Below are positions 12,217 to 54,389 of a DNA stretch of 59,963 nt, piece by piece (position 1 is the stretch's first letter; the number at the start of each line of letters is the position of its first letter). Position numbers and translations under genes: made by a program. The stretch is from positions 1 to 59,963 of the forward strand of contig MU271465.1 in assembly GCA_021432655.1 (NCBI GenBank). Direction: 5' to 3'. The notes beneath the pieces were generated by a model, which saw only the letters and a program-made list of their open reading frames with translations, did not search any database and was not told the origin of the DNA. The DNA is from Atractiella rhizophila. Its lineage: Eukaryota.

Positions 12217-13546
12217 ATGGACTTGCCAACCAACTTCAGCAGTAACCCGCATATAAAGAGCGCTCATGATGCGTGCCGAACCGTGGAGGGGAGCTTGAAA
12301 GAGAGAATAGAATCGACAGAGGACAGGAGTGTGGCGAAGGTGTTGCAGAAACAGCTCATCAACGTCCGAATCCTTGGTCGCATCCTCGAGTTCTGTCCGA
12401 CGCAGATTGGCAAGAACAAAATTGCGACAGAAGTCTTCACCGCTCTCAAGGAAGTGAAGACCAAAGACTTGCACTCCTCCGCCTCCCATGACGCTTTGAG
12501 CAATCTGGGGGAATTTTACGACCGCTTTTTCATTCGTTCGTGTAAGTTGGATCCTATATTTACGGGGTTCTTGCAGGTAATTTTTGTCCCTGCCCTGCGG
12601 TTACGCAGTTAGGAAGGCAAAAGGTTCGACGACGCAGATGTCAGGCCATCCTTCGCGACCATCTTTCGATCACGAGAGTGACTTGATGAAGGAGTTGCTT
12701 GTCGGTTGTCCAAAAGATCATCGTCAGGCAAAGGAAAGTGTAAGCACTGAGCTCGCTAACCTCCGTCTTTTTTAACTTCATGGCAGGCACTAATTCGCGA
12801 CAACCTCCGTTGCATCCTAAGTGGCAAAGTGGATCATCGCTTCGCACCAGACAATTTGAGGAAGGATCGAAACAATCAGATATCTCCGCCGGGACTCACT
12901 CACTGCGCTCACATATTTTCGGAATCGACCAATACCAATCTAGACGACGAGCACAAAGTGCGTAATGTCATTGTTTTCGGCGTATATTCATGGGTTAGTA
13001 TAGCGCAATCATGCCGCGAATGCTTGGGCGGTAATGGACAGGTTCGGACTCAGTGAAATTCGGCGAGAGCTAGAGGGTCAGAAGATACACCGTCTCAGCA
13101 ACATTCTAACCCTGGATTCGGCATTGCACGATTTGTTTGACAATCTCCAACTGTGGCTTCAGCCTACAGTGAGTGTCTCGGTATTCTTGATTCACTTCCA
13201 TTTATCATGCTCGTACAAGGCCGAATCCAACGTGTACAATATCGGGGCACAAGATGAAGAACTGGTTTTCGAGGGCTATCGCATTCCTCGATCAATCCTA
13301 CTCAGCTCTCGAAATCCGCGACTGGAACTACCCAACCCGGAGTACCTGAGAGTCCACGCTTCTTGCTGTCACATCGCAAATCTTTCCGGAGCAGTGAGTT
13401 ATCTTGATCAGATGGAAGATGTCCTTCCTTCGACCGTCCTTCCTCTGAAAGGTGATTTCTCGGAAGTCCTGACTGCCCGTCACTATGACCTGGAAATGTC
13501 GCAGCGACTGATTGAGGTTGGAAAGGAAAGGGAAGCTAAACAATGA
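12217..13546 (+). CDS. Fungal HNH_2-type endonuclease-domain protein, multi-exon
   Basis: Exons give ALIRDNLRCILSG, THCAHIFSES, IHRLSNILTLDSALHDLFDNLQLWL and LPNPEYLRVHASCCHIANLSGA, the usual pattern of basidiomycete HNH proteins. GT-AG introns lie between the pieces. Confidence 0.8.
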
Positions 13547-36231: not shown

Positions 36232-39200
36232 GTGGAACCACCTCCACCTTTTTATCGCGAACAGACCCAATACCCCAAACTTACTCTCCTCCCTCTATAC
36301 CTCAAAATGCACAAATTTCGCCTTATGCAGGAATCAGACTTGCCACACCCTCTATCTTCAAAGGAGTGCCTAGCTCAGTGCCGACCTTTCTTTGCGAAAT
36401 TTACGTCTACATATCTGCCATCCCAGAACAGTTCCCTTCAGAAAAGTCGAACATCTTATTTACTCTATCGTATATGAAAGAAGGAGATGCCGAAAAATTC
36501 GCCGCTGGGATACTACGCTGACTTGTCGAAAATGAGGAACAGATTTCGTGGGAGCAATTTTTGTCGGAGTTCAGATCATGTTTTTGCAAAACTGACCACA
36601 AACTTATTGCGCAAACGAAACTGTCTTCCCTGCAACAGAAGGGCAACCTAGAGTCCTACATCATCAAGTTTGAGGAGTTGGCAAATCAGGCAGACTTTGA
36701 TGATGAGGTGCTCACATTTTTCTTCAAACGGGGCCTCAACCCTGCCCTACACATTAAGGTGACACAAGGTGATTTCCCCAAGCCCCTTGAAGAGTGGAAG
36801 GAAAAAACGCGGCGAATCAACACAGAAGAATTTGCGCATTCCAGCTTATGGAACCCAAAATACACCTTCAGCAAAGAAAGATCACTCAAAATCTACGAAA
36901 CAGAAGGACAACAATGGACCCCCTCTGTACCGACCGAGCGCCGCTTTGTCGCCCATCACCGCTTCGCAACCTCAAGGACCCCAACGATATGGAGGTGGAC
37001 GCAACGAAGTTCAGACCGTCTCGTTGTCGAAGATGCCAAAAGATCGGACAAAGAGAGAAGGAATGCAAGGTATCCATGAGCAAAGAGCAATATCTTCGTG
37101 CACAAGGAGAATATTTCGACTCTCGTCTCATAAAACAAGAACAACAATCTGGGCAAATCCCCGACCGGTCGCCGAAAGGAAGCGTTGCGCAATCATCGGA
37201 TCTGGAGGAGGATCTTTGAGACGGCGATGGGTGAAAGGAGTGTCCCTGTCGCGGACTTGCAATTCATTTTCGTTATCTAAAATCACTTCCAACAAAGCGC
37301 CGCTTTGCGCAGATTTCCCTTCTCCCGAACAAGACTCCCCATTTCCAAAATTGCGTTTTCCATCTTGGAGACAAAGATGCGCTGATGTCGCAAAATGTAC
37401 GACAAAGTCCATTTACGTTCGACAACGGCATCCCTAGTCAGTTCGAAAACGAAACTCAGGACCGCTTTCCATCACCCACACTCCCATCGCCGGCACGCCA
37501 CATCGGCACTCGTCGACAGCGGGGCAACCAATTCCTTTATTTCTCCAAAACTCGTTTCTGAATACAACCTACCCGTCATTCAACTCCCTTCCCAGTGCCC
37601 GTTTACAATATCGACAGATTCCTCAATCAGGGGGTTCCATCCATTCTGTCGCTTATTTACCCATTTCGATCGCCGCCCATCATGAAGTTTGGCAATTTGC
37701 AGTGGCGGAGTTGGGGACAGTCGACATGATTCTGGGTCATGACTGGCTAAGACACCACAACCCAGGGAGTAACTGGGCGTCAGGGAAAGTTCAGTTCTCT
37801 TGTTGCCCCACCAGTTGCAACGCGGTTGATGTGTCTACCACACGAGACCAACTTCCATCGTCCTCTGCCTCAATACACGCTGCAATGACAAAATCGCAGA
37901 AACTGGCGAAAGACGCAGCGGCGATGAGACCAAAGAGTGTTGTTGAAATACCGACGCAAATCGCCAATTTTGCAGACATTTTCGATGACGAAAAATTCAA
38001 AACCTCGCTTCCTCCTCGACGACCTTGGGACCATGCCATCAACCTCAAACCAGAAGCTCAACCATATGCTGGTCCCGTCTACCCCTTGAAAAGAGACGAA
38101 CAAGCGGCGCTCGACCAATTCATTAACGCTGAACTGAGCGCCGGTCGTATACGTCCCAGCACAGGTGAACATGGTGCTTCCGTCTTTTTTACACACAAAA
38201 AAGACTCACCCAAACTTCGTCCCCTTTTCGACTATCGTAAGTTGAATGAAGCCACAATCAAGGACAAAACTCCACTCCCTATCCAAGCTGACCTCTTCTC
38301 TATGGTCTCTGGTAAGAAATTTTTTAGCAAGATTGACCTGAGAAAAGGTTTCAACAACGTTCGCATCAAAGAAGGAGACGAGCACAAAGCGGCGTTTCGC
38401 ACAAATTGTGGACTTTTCGAACCATTGGTGATGTATTTTGGTCTCTGAAACTCACCAGCGACTTTTCAGGCTTTCCTAAACTCTATTTTTCACGCGATGA
38501 TCGCCGCTGTGTTCATCTTCATATACATTGACGATATCCTCATTGCGACAGAGACTGAAGAAGAACATTGGGAACGTGTTCGACAAGTTTGTCAAATTTG
38601 CGCGAAAATGGGCTTTACATAAATTTGCAGAAATGTGTTTGGTGTCAAGAGGAGGTGGAGTATCTAGGCTTGATCATTTCCAGCAGAGGAATTGAACCAG
38701 ATCCAGTGAAAGGTGCAGGAGTGATGGATTGGCCGGAACCAAAAAACATGAAGGAAGTCCAAATGTTCCGCGGTTTCGCTAATTTCTATCGCCGCTTTTG
38801 CGACAGATTCAGTCACATCGCACGACCTTTATATGAACTGACGAAAATGGAGGTTTCCTGGGTCTGGGGGGTAGATCAACAACGTTCGTTCGCAGCTTTA
38901 ACACAACTCATGACTTCGGCGCCCGTTTTGGTGCATCCTGAACAAATAGGACGGTTTTTGCTCGAAGTCGACGCGTCAAATTTCGCGGCAGGCGCAGTTT
39001 TGTCGCAAATAAAGCCTGATGGGAAATTTCATCCTCTCGTTTCGTGTCAAAATCGCTCGACGCCGCCCAGAGGAACTATGACACCTACGACAAAGAAATG
39101 CTCGCGATTATGCGTGGACTGCAAGAATAGAGACACCTTCTTCAAGGCACTGATGAGCCATTTCTGATCTTGACCGATCACAAAAATCTTGAGTATTTCA

Positions 39201-41074
39201 GAATGCCACAAAGGTTGAATTGGCGACAGGCACGCTGGATCACCGAACTTGGATATTTCAACTTCACTCTTTTGCACCGTCCTGGACGAAACTCCGCAAA
39301 ACCAGATGCGCTCAGTCGGCGACCGGATCACAAACCGGCGACTTGCGACAACTTTGACGTAGTATTACTCCCAGAACGTTGTTTCAACACGGATCGTATC
39401 ATGATCAACGCGACTGGGTGCGCGGTTGCGCTCACAAGACAAATGTCGGAGTTGAGTATACTGGAACGTGTGAAAGAGGTACCTGAACGGGGAGAACAAG
39501 TAGTCAAAGCCTTGAGAGAGATCCTAGACGAACCAGTCGATGCAATTCGCCGACGGGAGTGGCAAGAGGTCGATGGTGCTGTCTACTTTCGCGGAAAACT
39601 CTACATTCCTCGCGACGACGAAATTCGCCTGCATGATTTGCAAATCGCCGGTCATCCAGGCGTAAAATCGACGACTGCTCTCGTAAAAAGATACTACTGG
39701 TGGCCAGGTTTGGCGCATTACATTCGCCGCTATGTCGGCACCTGTCACACTTGCCACAGAACGAAAAACTTTCCTTCCCCACCTGTCGGGTTTTTGCAAC
39801 CAAATGACATTCCCACACGTCACTGGCAAATTATCAGCATGGACTTGGTTGGACCACTCCCAGAATCTGGGGGGTTCGACACGATTTTCGTCATAGTTGA
39901 CAGACTCTCAAAATGCATCCATCTCATCCCCACCCATTCGACGATGGATGCAGAGGGCCTTGCAAGACTTTTTCGCGACCACGTATGGAAGCTACATGGA
40001 CTTTTCGATGTCGCAATTTTCGATCGTGGAAAAGAGTTTGTGTCTAAATTCACATCTGCGCTTTTTCGCCTATTGGGTATCAAAGGCTCACCATCAACAG
40101 CCTATCATCCACAAAGTGATGGCCAGACTGAACATATGAACCAAGAAGTTGAGCAATATTTGCGCATTTTCTGCAATCACCGTCAGGATAATTGGGTAGA
40201 AGGACTCCCCAACGCAGAATTTGCAATCAACAATCGTGTCAGTTCAGCGACGGGCGTAACTCCATTTTCGCTCGATTGCGGTCAACATCCCCGCATGGCC
40301 TTTGAACCCATCTCCGACGAGGACGTTCCCGCAGCGGCGCAATTCGTCGAAAAGATGCAAATCGCCAACCGGGAAGCACAAGCGGCAGTCGAGCAAGCAG
40401 CAGATCTCATGGCAAAATATTATGACAGAAAACGCGCACCGGCGCCCGAATATCATGTCGGCGATTTCGTCTGGTTGAGCGCGAAAAACATCAAATCGAC
40501 GAGACCTGTCAAAAAGTTAGACGACAAATGGCATGGCCCTTTTTGCGTTTTGCAAGTTTTGGGTCCCCTCGACCTTAAACTCGAGTTCGTCCTCTTGATC
40601 CTCATCATTGTCCTCAAGTAGCGCATCATGATCGTCTGCCTCAGTTTCTTTTCTATTCAAGTTTACGAGAAGTGTTGTGCCATCCTCATGGAAGATACCA
40701 GTGTTCCATGTGGGCCTGATACGAAAAGTCAACGAAGATGACATCCCTGGCAGAGTCCAGTTGCCCAAACCACCTCCGGAACTGGTGAATGGAATTGAGG
40801 AATGGGAAGTACAAAAAATGTTGATGGGAAATGGTTCGGTACCCGAAATAGAGTTTTCAAATATCGCGTTCGATACAAAGGGTATTCACCATCTCAGGAC
40901 GAGTGGATCAACATCACAGATCTAGAAAATTCGCAGGATGCTATAAAAGACTATCACACTGCACACCCTCTCGCAGTTCGTCCCGATTCCATACCGAACT
41001 CTGCCAAAAATCGCCCAAATGTGCGTTTTCGTAACCTTCGACGAAAAAGCGCTGAAGGGTCTTCCTCACTTTAA
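36232..41074 (+). pseudogene. gag-pol polyprotein with stops and frameshifts
   Basis: Fragmented ORFs; premature TGA in YFGL*NSPAT at 38446-38448; several frame switches. Confidence 0.9.
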
Positions 41075-47360: not shown

Positions 47361-48805
47361 AGTGGTAGTGGTAGGAGGTTATATGGAGAAGAGCTAAGGA
47401 GGAGTTCTGGTTCTGCAGGCAAAGAAGTTTGTGATTGAAGAAACTTGGTGATGGGGAAGTGGCAGGAAGACAGTGAGCGTAATTCCATGGAATGCCATTG
47501 TATTGCTACAATCCCACATCAATAGAGAGGTGCTAAATCAACAGTGACTCTGACATGTGGTGCGACATTTCACAATTTTGCTAGAGGGGCGCCAGCATTT
47601 TGACATTTTGTTGCAGACACGCCACAGGTACCTATAGCTGGAGAATTTCTGAGCAAAATATAAAAATAGATGCACTCACTGACTAAAATATGAAATGGAG
47701 GCATGCCATTTCGGAATGACAGTCATTTAGCAGATTGCTGACAAGCAAAATGTCGAAATAATGAAATAGCAAAATAATGAAATGATTTTACTATTTATGT
47801 GGTGTTCGGCGCGCCATAACCCTGGATGCCAGGGTCCACCGAAGGTGGAGGATTCTAACCGTATCCTCCTCCCATCCCATATAGGCTGGACCCTAGGGTG
47901 GCTTTAGAACATTGAAAATTTAAAATTTAGGAAACAGAGGGACTGGTAATTGGTTTCTGCTGACATGTAGCTGATACCATAGAATTAAGGTGGAGAGCAA
48001 AACAATGCTGCACTGTGATGAACAACATAAGAGGTAATCTAGAGAACCAGGGTGGAGAGTCCTTACAAATTATCGAAATGGCACGCATCACATTCATGAT
48101 TTTGCCACCAGTACCACACCTTAGTGCATAATTTACGATGTATAGGGTGGCACAAGTCATGTGGAAGAACGGATACCACGATTTAGAGCCACTAGGTGGA
48201 GCAAAATATGGAAATGGAGGCAAACAGAAGCGAAAGTGACATTTCTCTATTTCTTAATTGCCGATGGTATTTCGTGACTCTGCTACTGCCTCTTGGCAAT
48301 AATATGAATTGATTTTCAAAATGTTGAAACTATGAAATTTGATGAGCAGTCTTTCAAAAGAGTGATTTGTACCTTCCAAAAGTTTGCTCCTTCTATTTTG
48401 AAAGAGCGCGAACAAACCTTCAAAAGTTTGTTCACAATTGATGGAGAATTCGAGCAAAATATCAAAATGTCAAAATGTTGAATTGAATTCGTTATTTAGT
48501 ACCCATTTCACGCCCATACACAGGTTTCTGATGTCTTATGTTTACATCATGCTTGACATCGTCATTCATCATTCATAACATATATACAGTGTTCTTTCAT
48601 TTGCTCTTCTATTTGAAACTACAAGTGTTTGGGATCTGTAACTCATCAGTTTTCCATATGATTCATTTTAGAGACCAGTCTCCAGCCTCATGTATTCAGA
48701 CCACTGTCAAAATGAGCTAGTCAAAATTTGCCTTACTTTGATGGTGATACCAGCAGGCTTACGTACAAAGCTGAGCCTGGCTGAGTCGCAGCCATATCAA
48801 GGGTA

Positions 48806-51800
48806 TCAGCACCACAGATCTTCCATGCCAACACTACATTCCAGGGTGATGTTCTGCTTTCCCATGGGAAAGTATTTAAAGTCTTTGGTTGCTTTGGCCT
48901 CTATCTCGATCGGAAACAGTCTCGGAATCAGACTTCTTGCTTGGACAAGCAAGGAAAAACAAGGTAGACTCAATCTTCTCCCTGCAACTTGTTCAATACA
49001 CCTGTTCTTGAATTGGTGGTGGGTGGTTTCACCTTTGAGCTTCCAGGTTGCCCTTGGTGTATTAGTTCCCAGTGAGCGACATTCAGAAATCCACTCGGGG
49101 CGGAAGGTTAAACTCTGGTCGAAATCGTCAGGATAAGCAATTGTTTTGCCATTCCTATCTCCATTCCACCTTGCCTTCATCCTTCACTTTCATTTCGTCA
49201 GTTGAACTTGAGATTTTGGCCAGAATAAAGAGGTTTGTACGGACCAATTCTTCTTGATGTTGTGTGGAAACATCGTAATTATTCGTGGATAGTTGCGAAC
49301 ATCCACAACATTAAACACAACTTTCAGAGTCAGCTCCGCAATGTTTTGGGCATCAAAATCAAACGAGAACCTAAATCCCAAGCAACCGGGCCAACCAGGC
49401 ATCTTATCCATGTTTACCTAATCAGACCTTCACATAAACGCGACCATGATCGAGAAACGGTGGAAAAACAATCACTGACCATAGTCACTTCCAGCCGTAC
49501 GCCATGACTGTGAAAAGCATTCCTTTCACTCCGTTGCGGATCCAGGAAACGAAAAGCATTGATTAGGATGTTCTCCTTGTTGAGCTGATGGCTTCGTCCG
49601 CTCACATTAGCTCCTTCATCTTCATTTGATATGCCCGATGAAATGCCAAAAGATGGAATGTGGTCCCAAAGAGCACGGAACTTTGTTCGAGCATGGTCTC
49701 CTTGGATCGCAAATGGCTGATCTGCACTCCTGAGTGCATCTTCATGTAAAGCTTTTACATCGGCCTCCTTCCGTCGATCTCCTCTCCTGAGCACATTTTC
49801 TTGTAACACTTTAACCTCATCCTCTTTCCATCCGCATTGAAAAAGTGCTGTCACCAAGCTGTCGATGCATTCGGCCTGACCCCCTCCATGTCCACATTGC
49901 CCATAGAGCACCGCCGCGATCTCTAAAGGCCCCTTGGCCATGTGGCTCTGACCGGATTGAGAATAGACCTTCCCGATTAAGTGGAAGCATTGGCCGCGAC
50001 CGTGTTTATCCCCCACTTCTGCATACACGTCGTCCGCATCAACGAATGCCTTCAGTGCTTCTTCGAAGCGGCTGCCCCGAAAATCAATCTCTCCAAACTT
50101 TCGGATGCAGTGGGCTATGCCCTGTCGATCTCCCACTTCGCTATATAACACCTTCGCCTCCCCAAATGCCTTCAGTGCATCCTCGTTCCGGTCACAATCA
50201 AAGTTAATCTCTCCAACACTGAAGATACAGTGTGCTTGACCTCGTCGATCTCCTGTAACTCCATAGAGCACCATCGCCTCCTTGAACATTTTTACAGCGT
50301 CATCCTTCCTGCCACAGTGAAAGTGGATCCTCCCGATACTGAAGATGCAGTTAGCTTGACCCTGTCGATCTCGCAATTTGTTGAAAACTGCTTTAGCCTC
50401 TTCAAACTGCTTCAAAGCTTCCTCGTTCTGGCCACACCGAAAATCAATCTCCCCAACATTTCGGATGCAGTGCGCTTGACCCTGTTGATCTCCTAATTCC
50501 TTATAGAGCACTTTCGCCTCCTCAAACGCCTTCAGCGCGTTTGCCTTCCGGTCGCATTGAAAGTCTATCTCCGCCATGTTGCGGATGCAGTGGGCTTGGC
50601 CCTGTCGATCTCCCACTTCCCTGTACAGCAGCCCCGCTTTCTCAAACGCCTTCAGCGCCTCCCCGTTCCGACCGCGTTGAAAGTCGATCTCCCCGACGCT
50701 GCGGATACAGTGGGCTAGGCCGCGTCGATCTCCTGCTTCTCCATAAAGCACCTTCGCGTCCTCGAACGCTATCAACGCGTCCTTGTTCCGCCCAGCTCGA
50801 AAATCGATCTCTCCGATGCGCCGAATGCAGCGGGCTTCACCCTGTCGATCTCCCACTTCATGATAAAGCATCTTCACCTTGTTGAACATCGTCAATGCGT
50901 CCTTGTTGGCCCCGTGATTGCGATAACAGTGACCAAGCGACTCAGTAAGCGAACGCTGCAGTCTCATCAAGCTAAATTCGCTCTGATCTGTAGAACATGA
51001 CGTTGCTAGCGCTGTCTCGACGACACATGCCGCCTGACGGAAAGGTAGGGTTGAAAGGTAGTGGTTAAGGCGCAGGAACTCCGACATGTTGTTCAAACGG
51101 GAAACAAATGATAAAGGATCCGGTAGGTGTTTCATGCTTGCTACCAGGACATGTTCGAGATTTGGGTATTGTTCACGAAAGAGCAACAGTGCCTGAAGAT
51201 TCTTGCCTTTTTCGAACTGTTCAATAGTTTTCTCAGCATTTTGCATGAGATGATTAGTAAGAGGCCTGAGAGACGAAGCGACCTCGAGCGAAAACGGTAG
51301 TTGGGATTCAGATACGAGGCTGTTGACATATTTACGAATAGGAGCTAGCATACGAAGAGTGCCTTTGAGGTCACTGGCAAGCCCAATCTTCGAAATAACG
51401 GAGATGACTTTGAAGGTATCGGGAGGGTCAGACGGTCCACAAATGAGTGCTGACAAATCACGGTGGGATAGACCATCAGGAGCCCATGACAAGAAAGCAA
51501 GCGCAAGGACAGCGCGTTTTCCCTGCTGTTTGAGAGCTGGAGAATCAAGGGAGAAGGAGATAGAGGTTTTGAGTGTGACCACGTCTCCGTTGTCTAGGTT
51601 CCACAAAACATCTGTCCTTTTTGCCTCCCACTCTTCTGCCAATTCCTTGAGTGTCATCGTGGAATCCTCATGGGCACGTAGAGCAAATAGCTTGATTGAT
51701 AAAGCATGGAAGTCCAGCTTTTCCAACAGGCGTTCAACGAGCGGGTCAGAAAACTCCTCTTCTCTCTGATATGAGTTCTTAAAGAGTGTGCGGGCAGCGT

Positions 51801-53510
51801 CTTTAGGCAAAGCGTTAACTGGGACCCTAAGAAACGATACTGACTCATCCGCGCTGACATCTAAAGGTTCGACTTGATGTCCGCGATGGGTCACGACCAG
51901 CACTGACCCCACTGAGTTGTTCGAAAGAAGAGTCCGAAAGAAGTCTTGCTTTTTATCGTTGTCAGCAAGCAGGGGAGTTTCAAAGTTATCCAAGGCGAGA
52001 AGGCATTTTTGACTTCGGAAGAAATCTGCTGCGGCCTCCAGTGATGGTTTGCTGGATCGAGGCAGCGCGAAGACGTCGTTACAGATGTGGTCGGAAAGTA
52101 ACCCAAAGCTGTTAATGTTGTGGCAAGGAACCCAGAAGCGGAGATCTTCTCCGCTGTTTCCATTCATATCTGAAAAGGATTGCTGAATCTCCTTCAAGTG
52201 CAGGGTATTAAGGGCGATGGTGGATTTTCCGTTCCCAGCTCCGCCCACAATCGCAACATGGCGGCCCTGAAGTATAGCTTTTCTGGCCTTTTTGACCTCA
52301 GCTTCACGCCCAAAACAACTTCCGGGAGGCGGTAGTGGCGACTTTCTACGAACTGCAATCCGTTCACTCGACGCTTCAAAGAACGTCAACATGGTATCAA
52401 CGTGAGAGCTAAGAAATCATACCCTGCGCGAGACATACAGCAGCATTAAGTACTTGGTGGCCCATTCCTTCCATATATGCCTTCGTACAGCCCACCACAT
52501 CCTGCATCCGCCCCCACTCCGCCCAATTTATGCTTCCCGTCGTATGGGCTGAAAAGCGATGGTACCGATGTGCCAGACCTTGCCCCAGCATGCTCGCCTT
52601 CAACCAATCGGCTACCTGAGAACAATCGTCTACAATGGCTTTCAAAGCAGACTCAACTTGGTCTATAGTCTGTCCCAATTTGACGGGCTGAGCGAGCCCT
52701 GACCCCAAGGAGACAAGACAGGCGACTTGGCTCCCTTCTCCCCAGATACGCTTTGACTCGTCAATCGCCAATGCCGCTGGGTTATTATTTCCAATGGCGA
52801 CATATTTCGCTCCGTCGATGACGATCGGGGGAAAGAAGTGAGGTTCGGAGGAAGTTGCTCTTGCTGCTTCCCACACCGTACATCCAGCAGCAGAATGAAT
52901 TCCATCGAGGCCGTCGTACGTACGCATCTCTGTTGAAACAACTACATTGGATTCGTACCTTGACACCACAAAAGTTTTGCATCTATCTCCGATTGCCGCA
53001 TCCCTCATAGGAAGTTGAGAGGGCGATACAGACGACGGGGCGTGTCGTGCGATGATCTCGTGGAAGACGGCTTCGAGCCTCTCTGCAGAGTACAGATAGC
53101 CTTCTTTCGAACTTGGGGCTTCCTCGGAAAAGACATTCTGTACGATTTGCTCATATGCACTGATGGATTGTCGAACAGTCATTCCCAACCGTCCGAGCAT
53201 GATGGCCATCCAACCTCCCGTGGAAGTGCCACAGATGAGATCGAAAACATCGCACGGCCGGACCTCTTGTCCCTTTGCCTCGAGGAGTTCTCCGACTTCA
53301 AGCATGACAACGTCGAGCATGTAAAGCGTGGAGAAGGTACATATGCCGCCATTGTCGATGGCGAGAATTCGGAGTCCCCTTTCGTTGGCCTTCTTCACAT
53401 TCTCTGGAACATTGAAAATCTTGACATGTGGCATGGCGTCTTGTTCCCGTATAGCCTATTAATCTATGTTAGATGAGAATGGCTGAGAAGATTTAAGCGA
53501 CCTCGACCAT
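48806..53510 (-). CDS. NLR-like protein copy 2: patatin-like + STAND NTPase + TPR array + probable spliced C-terminal domain
   Basis: Same motifs as copy 1 (DNGGI, GTSTG, GGAGNGKS, LLALDNFE). Intron 52374-52422 joins CLAQ-A-SSERI in frame. Possible micro first exon at 53510 (intron 53456-53501 with CTAAC). Putative introns 49418-49479 and 49182-49244 extend the frame to 48806. Without them the ORF stops at 49414. Confidence 0.87.
49850..50940 (-). repeat. Coding tandem array of 120-bp (40-aa) TPR-like units: 7 well conserved plus degenerate flanking units
   Basis: Consensus GDRQGQAHCIRxVGEIDFxCGRNEEALKAFEEAKVLYxEV; the DNA motif CCTGTCGATCTCC recurs every 120 bp. Confidence 0.95.
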
Positions 53511-54389
53511 TGTGAGTATGCAGAAGCGCAAAACCCAGGTGAGGTGAAAGAAGTTTACAGGAGGATGATATGTCGAAGGATTTGCCTCTGAGCTTGCACG
53601 CGGCCAGAAGGAGACGTCGGGAATTGAAGGTGTCTGCAAGACTGCTGACGCAGTTTGTTATTGTTAAGGTTTGCTGAGAGAAGGAGTAGCGATTTAGCTT
53701 TCGATGGACATGTTTGCGGCCGTTTGTCTCAACTCAAGCATGGAATGCTTTGGGCAACTTTCGGCAGGCTTCTGCAACTGACATTCAAAAACGTTTGTCT
53801 CCGGAGTGCTAAATACAGGGTACTGCAACAATAGTGTCGCCTGTCGCCGTTAATTTCAAGCGCCCTTCCAGTCGCAAGTATACGCAAGCACTCCATCTAA
53901 AGACGATCTCATGTCGAAGGAAATCCTTCCTTTCTTCTACGACAAGCGTGAGAGTGCCGTCGTCCCTCGGGCAACATTACATGGAAGCTCCACGATGTTC
54001 TGTCCTTGGACCTCCAGAACATTCTCCCCAACAACGTTACCCCGACCTCTCCTTCTCGACCTGTCGCTTCCCAACCAAAAACTCGATAAAAGGAGGCAGA
54101 CCTCTAGAGCTTTTGTCATTCCCACAAAACGCTCTATCAACATGGTGTCCAAAAGGCCGGTTCGACAAGTCAAGATTATAGACATGGTGAAGCAGAATAA
54201 TGAAGAAGGAACCCATCAGCAAGGGCAGAGCATAAGAAGACGAGAAGCATATTTCTATGGCCTTTGACGACTTGTCCTGTTCATTGACTATTATTTGTGT
54301 GATAGGAACTCAGACATTCCTGGATACAAGGAGCTTGAGGTTTTGATAGCAGCCGCTGCAACGATAGGACATGATCAAGATTATGTATG

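Follow-up and report, generated by a model that had tools for sequence, protein, structure and literature searches.

In plants, NOD-like receptors with integrated domains (NLR-IDs) carry a non-canonical domain fused to the NOD-like receptor (NLR), with relatives of that domain elsewhere in the proteome, and the integrated-decoy model for these proteins was reportedly put forward by Cesari et al. in 2014. Plant receptors of this type usually operate alongside a helper NLR arranged head-to-head, and their effector targets are known. The closest described fungal systems are NLRs with an N-terminal patatin-like lipase, a STAND NTPase and tetratricopeptide repeats (TPR). As surveyed by Dyrka et al. 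(2014, PMC4986451), patatin is one of 12 N-terminal effector classes, occurs almost invariably with NB-ARC and is inferred to act in cell-death control; an incompatibility gene of Cryphonectria parasitica encodes a patatin NLR. Extra domains are also on record: in the account of a 2025 survey of Sordariales (PMC12258605), 8% of NLRs carried non-canonical domains, mostly C-terminal, and nine combined the full tripartite architecture with a C-terminal kinase, proposed to be an integrated decoy. Here, a stretch of 59,963 nucleotides from Atractiella rhizophila (contig MU271465.1, positions 1 to 59,963; the window) was analyzed. Its second NLR gene (copy 2) is one expressed minus-strand gene with an ATG at 53510, a stop at 48806, five coding introns of 46-63 nt and one intron in the 3′ untranslated region (UTR). 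It very probably encodes a four-part patatin-STAND-TPR-X protein of 1477 residues, in which X is a domain of roughly 173 residues (1305-1477) behind the repeats. This architecture, already proposed in an earlier sequence-only reading, is supported because spliced contigs, a single 1477-codon frame and homologues crossing the junctions were found.

Copy 2 resembles the fungal patatin-NOD-TPR NLRs (PMC4986451) in its lipase, NTPase and repeats; these are described as tripartite, whereas copy 2 adds a fourth, unnamed domain after the repeats, and its NOD could not be assigned to NB-ARC or NACHT with Pfam. With Sordariales NLRs such as T-NACHT followed by PKinase (PMC12258605) it shares an extra C-terminal domain that is also present in non-NLR proteins, proposed in that survey as an integrated decoy or additional sensor. 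The extra domains presented there belong to named Pfam families (zinc finger, SPRY, PKinase) and come from Ascomycota, whereas X has no name, was found only in A. rhizophila (Basidiomycota) and is combined with a patatin effector. Teleost NLR-B30.2 proteins, as treated in the same source, similarly have a C-terminal domain of the beta-sandwich type after the repeats, which is constitutive and a binding module; X has no SPRY/B30.2 match in Pfam and its fold models are too poor to compare. Plant NLR-IDs differ from copy 2 in their head-to-head helper: besides copy 2, the window contains a single NLR, copy 1, on the same strand about 44 kb away. An NLR with an extra C-terminal domain is already known in fungi, and "unusual in fungi", as the architecture had been called, applies in the sense of rare but not of unprecedented, given the figure for Sordariales. 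What is new is the unnamed X family, its combination with patatin and its hiding behind three short introns.

Without splicing, the minus strand shows an open frame of 348 codons (53455-52409) followed by one of 1000 codons (52416-49414), and the NLR frame ends at a TAA (49416-49414). X1, the sole public run covering the stretch, was aligned to 48300-53700. A contig of 3728 letters (record 1), without mismatches to the window, spans 48582 to about 52597 and skips five stretches (Table 1), and the contig with the start codon (record 4) joins 53234-53454 to 53501-53690. All seven X1 joints have CT..AC ends on the plus strand, corresponding to GT..AG for the gene, each skips 46-63 nt, and six of them are located in contigs of depth 26-32. 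Bin depths equalled contig depth multiplied by the exonic fraction (for bin 49386-49566, 21.3 = 32.4 x 119/181), and the skipped stretches are therefore without cover; depth was 0 in the intergenic stretch 48300-48480. From this behaviour we infer that the run is cDNA. Joining of the exons gave 4434 nt with a sole, terminal stop and GT..AG ends in six of six introns, as verified with an exon-joining script. When all GT/AG pairs were scanned, several options preserved the frame. In one of them, intron 1 would end at 49403, which makes it 77 nt long, leaves the frame unchanged and is better spaced from a branch-like CTGAT; it was rejected, as the contig uses 49418.

Relatives of X were obtained by a HMMER scan of 1.84 billion representatives with the unspliced last exon as query, which returned one match (E 9.6e-10), the 234-aa hypothetical protein P0004. 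Two more came from word-indexed searches: P0005 (223 aa) and, from the longer proteins, P0006 (743 aa), the latter matched by a profile at E 8.4e-14. All three belong to A. rhizophila. P0004 and P0005 are little more than X, and P0006 carries X at residues ~545-743, preceded by about 540 residues of unrelated sequence. As annotated, X thus has homologues that stand alone, for which the sequence-only reading had suggested a search, or are fused differently, and an integrated-domain reading calls for such proteins. A tblastn match of P0004 to the window covered both exons at E 1.9e-31; the alignment is interrupted by 21 codons precisely where intron 2 lies and by 16 residues at the site of intron 3. 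In P0004, ...NIKKNW continues directly into LKGRQNG..., where in the window intron 2 separates NIKKNW from MKARWNG, and excising intron 3 abolishes the 16-residue insertion relative to P0004. In blastp, spliced X had 53% identity with P0004 (146 aa aligned) and 34% with P0005 (154 aa aligned). The 165 codons added after junction 1 gave a codon-usage score of +0.04 in the used frame; the two remaining frames scored -0.37 and -0.25.

The first conserved strand of X, GVRLEVTM (49503-49480), lies inside the large NLR exon, upstream of intron 1. In a MAFFT alignment it was matched to GVRLQVTK of P0006 and VVRLEIAR of P0005, immediately before the block that corresponds to exon 4; X therefore begins in the NLR frame and spans intron 1. 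As judged from these alignments, this start is evidence for the fusion that is independent of run X1. From the GVRLEVTM strand to the LGFRF motif the window has 98 nt, compared to 16-19 codons in the three relatives, an excess in length that fits an inserted intron and not a frameshift.

The sequence-only reading had placed introns 1 and 2 (GTCCGT...AAGTGAAG for the latter) exactly. Both junctions are spanned by the X1 contig: intron 1 is skipped precisely and retained in no X1 contig, and the acceptor of intron 2, which had been doubted, is the one used by the contig and marked by the 21-codon gap in P0004. The peptides quoted at the time are the translations of 49417-49190 and 49183-48806. 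Splicing does add a tail, of 165 aa instead of the approximately 180 aa proposed: intron 3 had been missed and 17 of the residues are not in the protein. This intron was read as coding because it is in frame and stop-free. A counterpart of X in copy 1 had not been seen, and this holds within the window (tblastn).

Table 1. Exons, introns and 3′ end of NLR copy 2 (positions in the window; X1 joints on plus-strand coordinates)
Feature	Position	Strand	Evidence
Coding exon 1: ATG 53510-53508 and two codons	53502..53510	-	First ATG in contig reaching 53690
Intron, 46 nt, GTCGCT..AATAG	53456..53501	-	X1 joint 53454>53501 (cut +1)
Coding exon 2, patatin-like phospholipase domain	52423..53455	-	Pfam PF01734
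Possible alternative in-frame intron in exon 2, 60 nt, after patatin domain, GTTGAG..TTGAAG	52598..52657	-	X1 joint 52596>52657
Intron, 49 nt, GTATGA..TTTGAAG	52374..52422	-	X1 joint 52373>52423; skipped by 3728-letter contig
Coding exon 3: P-loop STAND NTPase, TPR units, linker, first strand of X	49480..52373	-	Pfam, X1 contig, MAFFT
Intron 1, 62 nt, GTCAGT..CTGATTAG	49418..49479	-	X1 joint 49415>49478 (cut +2), shorter side 172 letters; skipped by 3728-letter contig
Coding exon 4, domain X part 2	49245..49417	-	X1 contig, P0004 alignment
Intron 2, 63 nt, GTCCGT..GTGAAG, branch-like CTGAC 16 nt before end	49182..49244	-	X1 joint 49180>49244 (cut +1); P0004 gap; skipped by 3728-letter contig
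Coding exon 5, domain X part 3, conserved TIAYP motif	49033..49181	-	X1 contig, alignments
Intron 3, 51 nt, GTGAAA..GTTGCAG	48982..49032	-	X1 joint 48980>49032 (cut +1); 16-residue insertion relative to P0004; skipped by 3728-letter contig
Coding exon 6, domain X part 4, CFSLLV and IEIEAKA strands, stop TGA 48808-48806	48806..48981	-	X1 contig, alignments
3′ UTR to contig limit	48582..48805	-	X1 contig
3′ UTR intron, 63 nt, GTACGT..TTGACAG, begins 40 nt past stop codon	48766-48704	-	X1 joint 48703>48767; skipped by 3728-letter contig

The core of the protein was delimited using Pfam. With 53.7 bits (E 4e-14), the patatin domain (PF01734) exceeded its cut-off of 27.7, and G-T-S-T-G and D-G-A, which we take to be the patatin catalytic motifs, are readable in the translation of exon 2. 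In the NTPase region (~52314-51712) all matches were sub-threshold (nSTAND1 23.3 bits, cut-off 27.1; NACHT 23.3, cut-off 26.7; NB-ARC 11.9, cut-off 23.5); the translation there contains GGAGNGKS, which resembles a Walker A motif, and an LLALD stretch. TPR_12 scored 110.2 bits (cut-off 30.1) in five stretches, and about nine 40-residue units can be read between ~50980 and 49870, followed by a linker of roughly 120-130 aa before X. When proteins of 550-1750 aa were searched with the tail behind the TPR units (P0003 residues 830-1000), no relative was found (0 of 195 candidates).

The alternative intron in exon 2 is weakly supported, by one contig of depth 13.8 that extends only 29 letters past the joint on its shorter side; the main X1 contig breaks at this intron, as a splice variant would predict. 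X1 depth reaches 128 at 53187-53367, the conserved N-terminus of patatin, where one contig diverges at 53274 into 255 unlike letters. This stretch is probably shared by transcripts of paralogous patatin genes.

No Pfam or PADLOC family was found for P0004, P0005 or P0006. The exon pieces of X and the three relatives gave no Pfam family at E <= 1, SPRY/B30.2 included, except that the unspliced last exon, which includes intron 3, matched Ig_3 below threshold (E 0.15; 13 bits, cut-off 30). A search of PDB sequences with the X profile gave no match, and two metagenome scans yielded 512 and 41 pattern matches, none of which was confirmed by tblastn. By these searches, X is a small family without a name in Pfam, PADLOC or PDB sequences.

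AlphaFold2 models were made of the P0006 tail (7-row alignment; pLDDT 48.4, pTM 0.47) and of P0005 (6-row alignment; pLDDT 41.5, pTM 0.38). Both are all-beta, with long strands at equivalent positions and low confidence, which is consistent with the beta-rich tail predicted in the sequence-only reading. The fold itself could not be assigned: AlphaFold2, Foldseek and VIA yielded no confident fold. Of the outcomes that the reading had named as counter-evidence, this is the one that occurred; homologues and junction-spanning contigs were found. No PDB structure reached E <= 1e-3 in Foldseek (best E 1.2e-3, TM 0.32-0.40). In VIA, the best row was an adhesin Ig-like domain (Z 10.1, rmsd 4.7, 149 residues aligned, for a model with pLDDT 48), followed by rows at Z 9.3 and 9.2; these are generic beta-sandwiches, namely adhesin Ig-like domains, hemolysin-family caps and cohesins. 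A best Z of 7-8 is typical of VIA when a true match is absent, and the X model is too poor to lean on. For P0004, ESM Atlas gave no usable match, its own model of this protein having a pLDDT of 0.30.

The N-terminal region of P0006 (residues 150-545) was compared with ESM Atlas as well. By features, it was closest to unnamed Basidiomycota clusters (0.96), the nearest named ones being Bact_GSDM (0.83; a label carried by 11% of that cluster's members) and Gasdermin/PJVK (0.79). In structural comparison, the TM was 0.31-0.40 for gasdermin clusters and 0.65 for a cluster of WD40 proteins from Basidiomycota, in the N-terminal part of the latter. Sequence searches of P0006 in Pfam, PADLOC and PDB gave no match. 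The likeness to gasdermin, which falls below the bar of ESM Atlas itself, is taken as a lead only. A fold like that of the P0006 N-terminal region thus occurs fused to WD40 repeats in that Basidiomycota cluster (TM 0.65).

The general STAND/NLR scheme consists of ligand sensing, oligomerisation and effector action (as outlined in Dyrka et al. 2014, PMC4986451). Applied to copy 2, the C-terminal half would hold the NOD closed until a ligand binds; oligomerisation would then bring the patatin domains together, and the clustered domains might attack membrane lipids, leading to cell death or defence. Located on the sensing side, after the repeats, X could add a second specificity surface to the TPR sensor. 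By analogy, X may be a portable recognition or bait module ("integrated domain"), a tentative assignment, slightly less likely than not, made because it follows the repeats and is also present in two small proteins and as the C-terminal part of an unrelated A. rhizophila protein. Averaged over the four-part architecture and the bait role, the explanation as a whole is considered fairly probable. In a more specific form, the bait would be copied from a gasdermin-like executioner of the P0006 type, whose C-terminal regulatory domain would have been integrated in the patatin NLR as X. This form is considered very unlikely; if true, the receptor would guard the fungus's own pore-forming death machinery against disarming effectors and would be the first fungal integrated-decoy NLR with a nameable guarded protein family.

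Several observations weigh against the fused receptor with a bait module. The kind of run X1 is unrecorded, its cDNA nature being read from its behaviour, and Logan contigs may fuse overlapping transcripts, such that a single full-length molecule is not formally demonstrated. The NOD of copy 2 scores under the Pfam cut-offs. Starting from spliced X, blastp did not reach P0006 at E <= 1e-3, and tblastn of P0006 against the window gave nothing significant at X; the link between P0006 and X rests on the profile match and the MAFFT alignment. The gene models of P0004, P0005 and P0006 contain X and lack the NLR parts, and mis-splitting is possible for them: P0004 and P0005 may be the 3′ ends of larger genes. 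Outside this one species, no relative of X was found in the HMMER scan or in the two metagenome scans, and no confident fold was obtained. The tail scores lower in codon usage than the core exons (0.04 compared to 0.11-0.33), and GC is 0.42-0.48 in the tail exons (48806-49417) compared to 0.50 in the core NLR exon (49480-52373), values that would fit a later acquisition of X.

These last properties of the tail also bear on the possibility that X has no recognition role and covers the TPR solenoid as a cap specific to this lineage or as an autoinhibitory lid, or is a nearly neutral, recent tail derived by exon shuffling. A tiny family limited to one lineage, the lower GC and weaker codon-usage score, the lack of X in copy 1 and the lack of a confident fold would all agree with this. 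Nevertheless, the 165 codons form an intact frame across three introns, each of which is spliced out in the transcript contig, and motifs are conserved at 34-53% identity with the two relatives reached by blastp, pointing to constraint at the protein level; a lid or neutral tail is considered unlikely. The distribution of X over the receptor, the C-terminus of the non-NLR protein P0006 and small proteins would, in turn, suit a homotypic adaptor: clustered X domains would recruit X-bearing proteins, e.g. a P0006-like and possibly gasdermin-like executioner, as a second output besides patatin, resembling CARD-CARD or fungal amyloid-motif signalling. Fungal NLR signalling motifs common to receptor and effector are described with the same distribution (PMC9815663), and the gasdermin likeness of P0006 residues 150-545 in ESM Atlas is a lead in this direction. 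Known fungal NLR signalling modules are N-terminal, however, and that site is taken here by an enzymatic effector, with X placed after the sensor repeats; two tblastn searches found X nowhere else in the window, and thus no X-bearing partner gene; and the gasdermin link lies under the ESM Atlas bar, with empty sequence searches of P0006. We regard an adaptor function as quite unlikely.

An arrangement of two genes, in which the NLR ends at TAA 49414 and a small gene starts at ATG 49411, or in which the tail is a frameshifted relic of an expressed pseudogene, would account for an ATG right behind the unspliced stop and for the annotation of P0004 and P0005 as small stand-alone proteins. No X1 contig covers intron 1, however, and the TAA stop is absent from every RNA form seen; the joint links at least 172 letters on each side; X starts before the intron, its first strand being part of the NLR frame; a promoter would have no room; and the excess in junction length fits an intron and not a frameshift. 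Based on the X1 joint, the frame and the junction length, both the separate gene and the pseudogene were rejected as extremely improbable.

Automatic gene callers tend to stop fungal NLR genes at the first stop past the repeats; in copy 2 the fourth domain lies behind three short introns, and surveys of NLR architecture may therefore undercount such tails. With members in a receptor, in small proteins and in a protein that may be gasdermin-like, the X family would be a concrete candidate for plant-like integrated baits in fungal NLRs. The sole relatives found belong to a member of Pucciniomycotina, a subphylum in which, according to the survey of Dyrka et al. 2014 (PMC4986451), no NLRs were found; the main text of PMC9815663 mentions neither "Pucciniomycotina" nor "Atractiella".

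NLR copy 1 (4737-1304, minus strand) contains patatin (51.6 bits) and nSTAND1 (27.7 bits) matches and shares 59% identity with copy 2 in the NOD region. About two TPR units are followed by the stop at 1304, with no X and no further TPR downstream, and the copy may be truncated or decaying. Between the two copies lies a retroelement of the Ty3/gypsy type (~36500-40600, plus strand) in several broken frames, with Retrotrans_gag, RVT_1, RT_RNaseH_2, Integrase_H2C2 and rve domains. An open frame at 13004-13546 on the plus strand has a weak match to the HNH_2 endonuclease family (22.6 bits, cut-off 21, E 9.5e-5).

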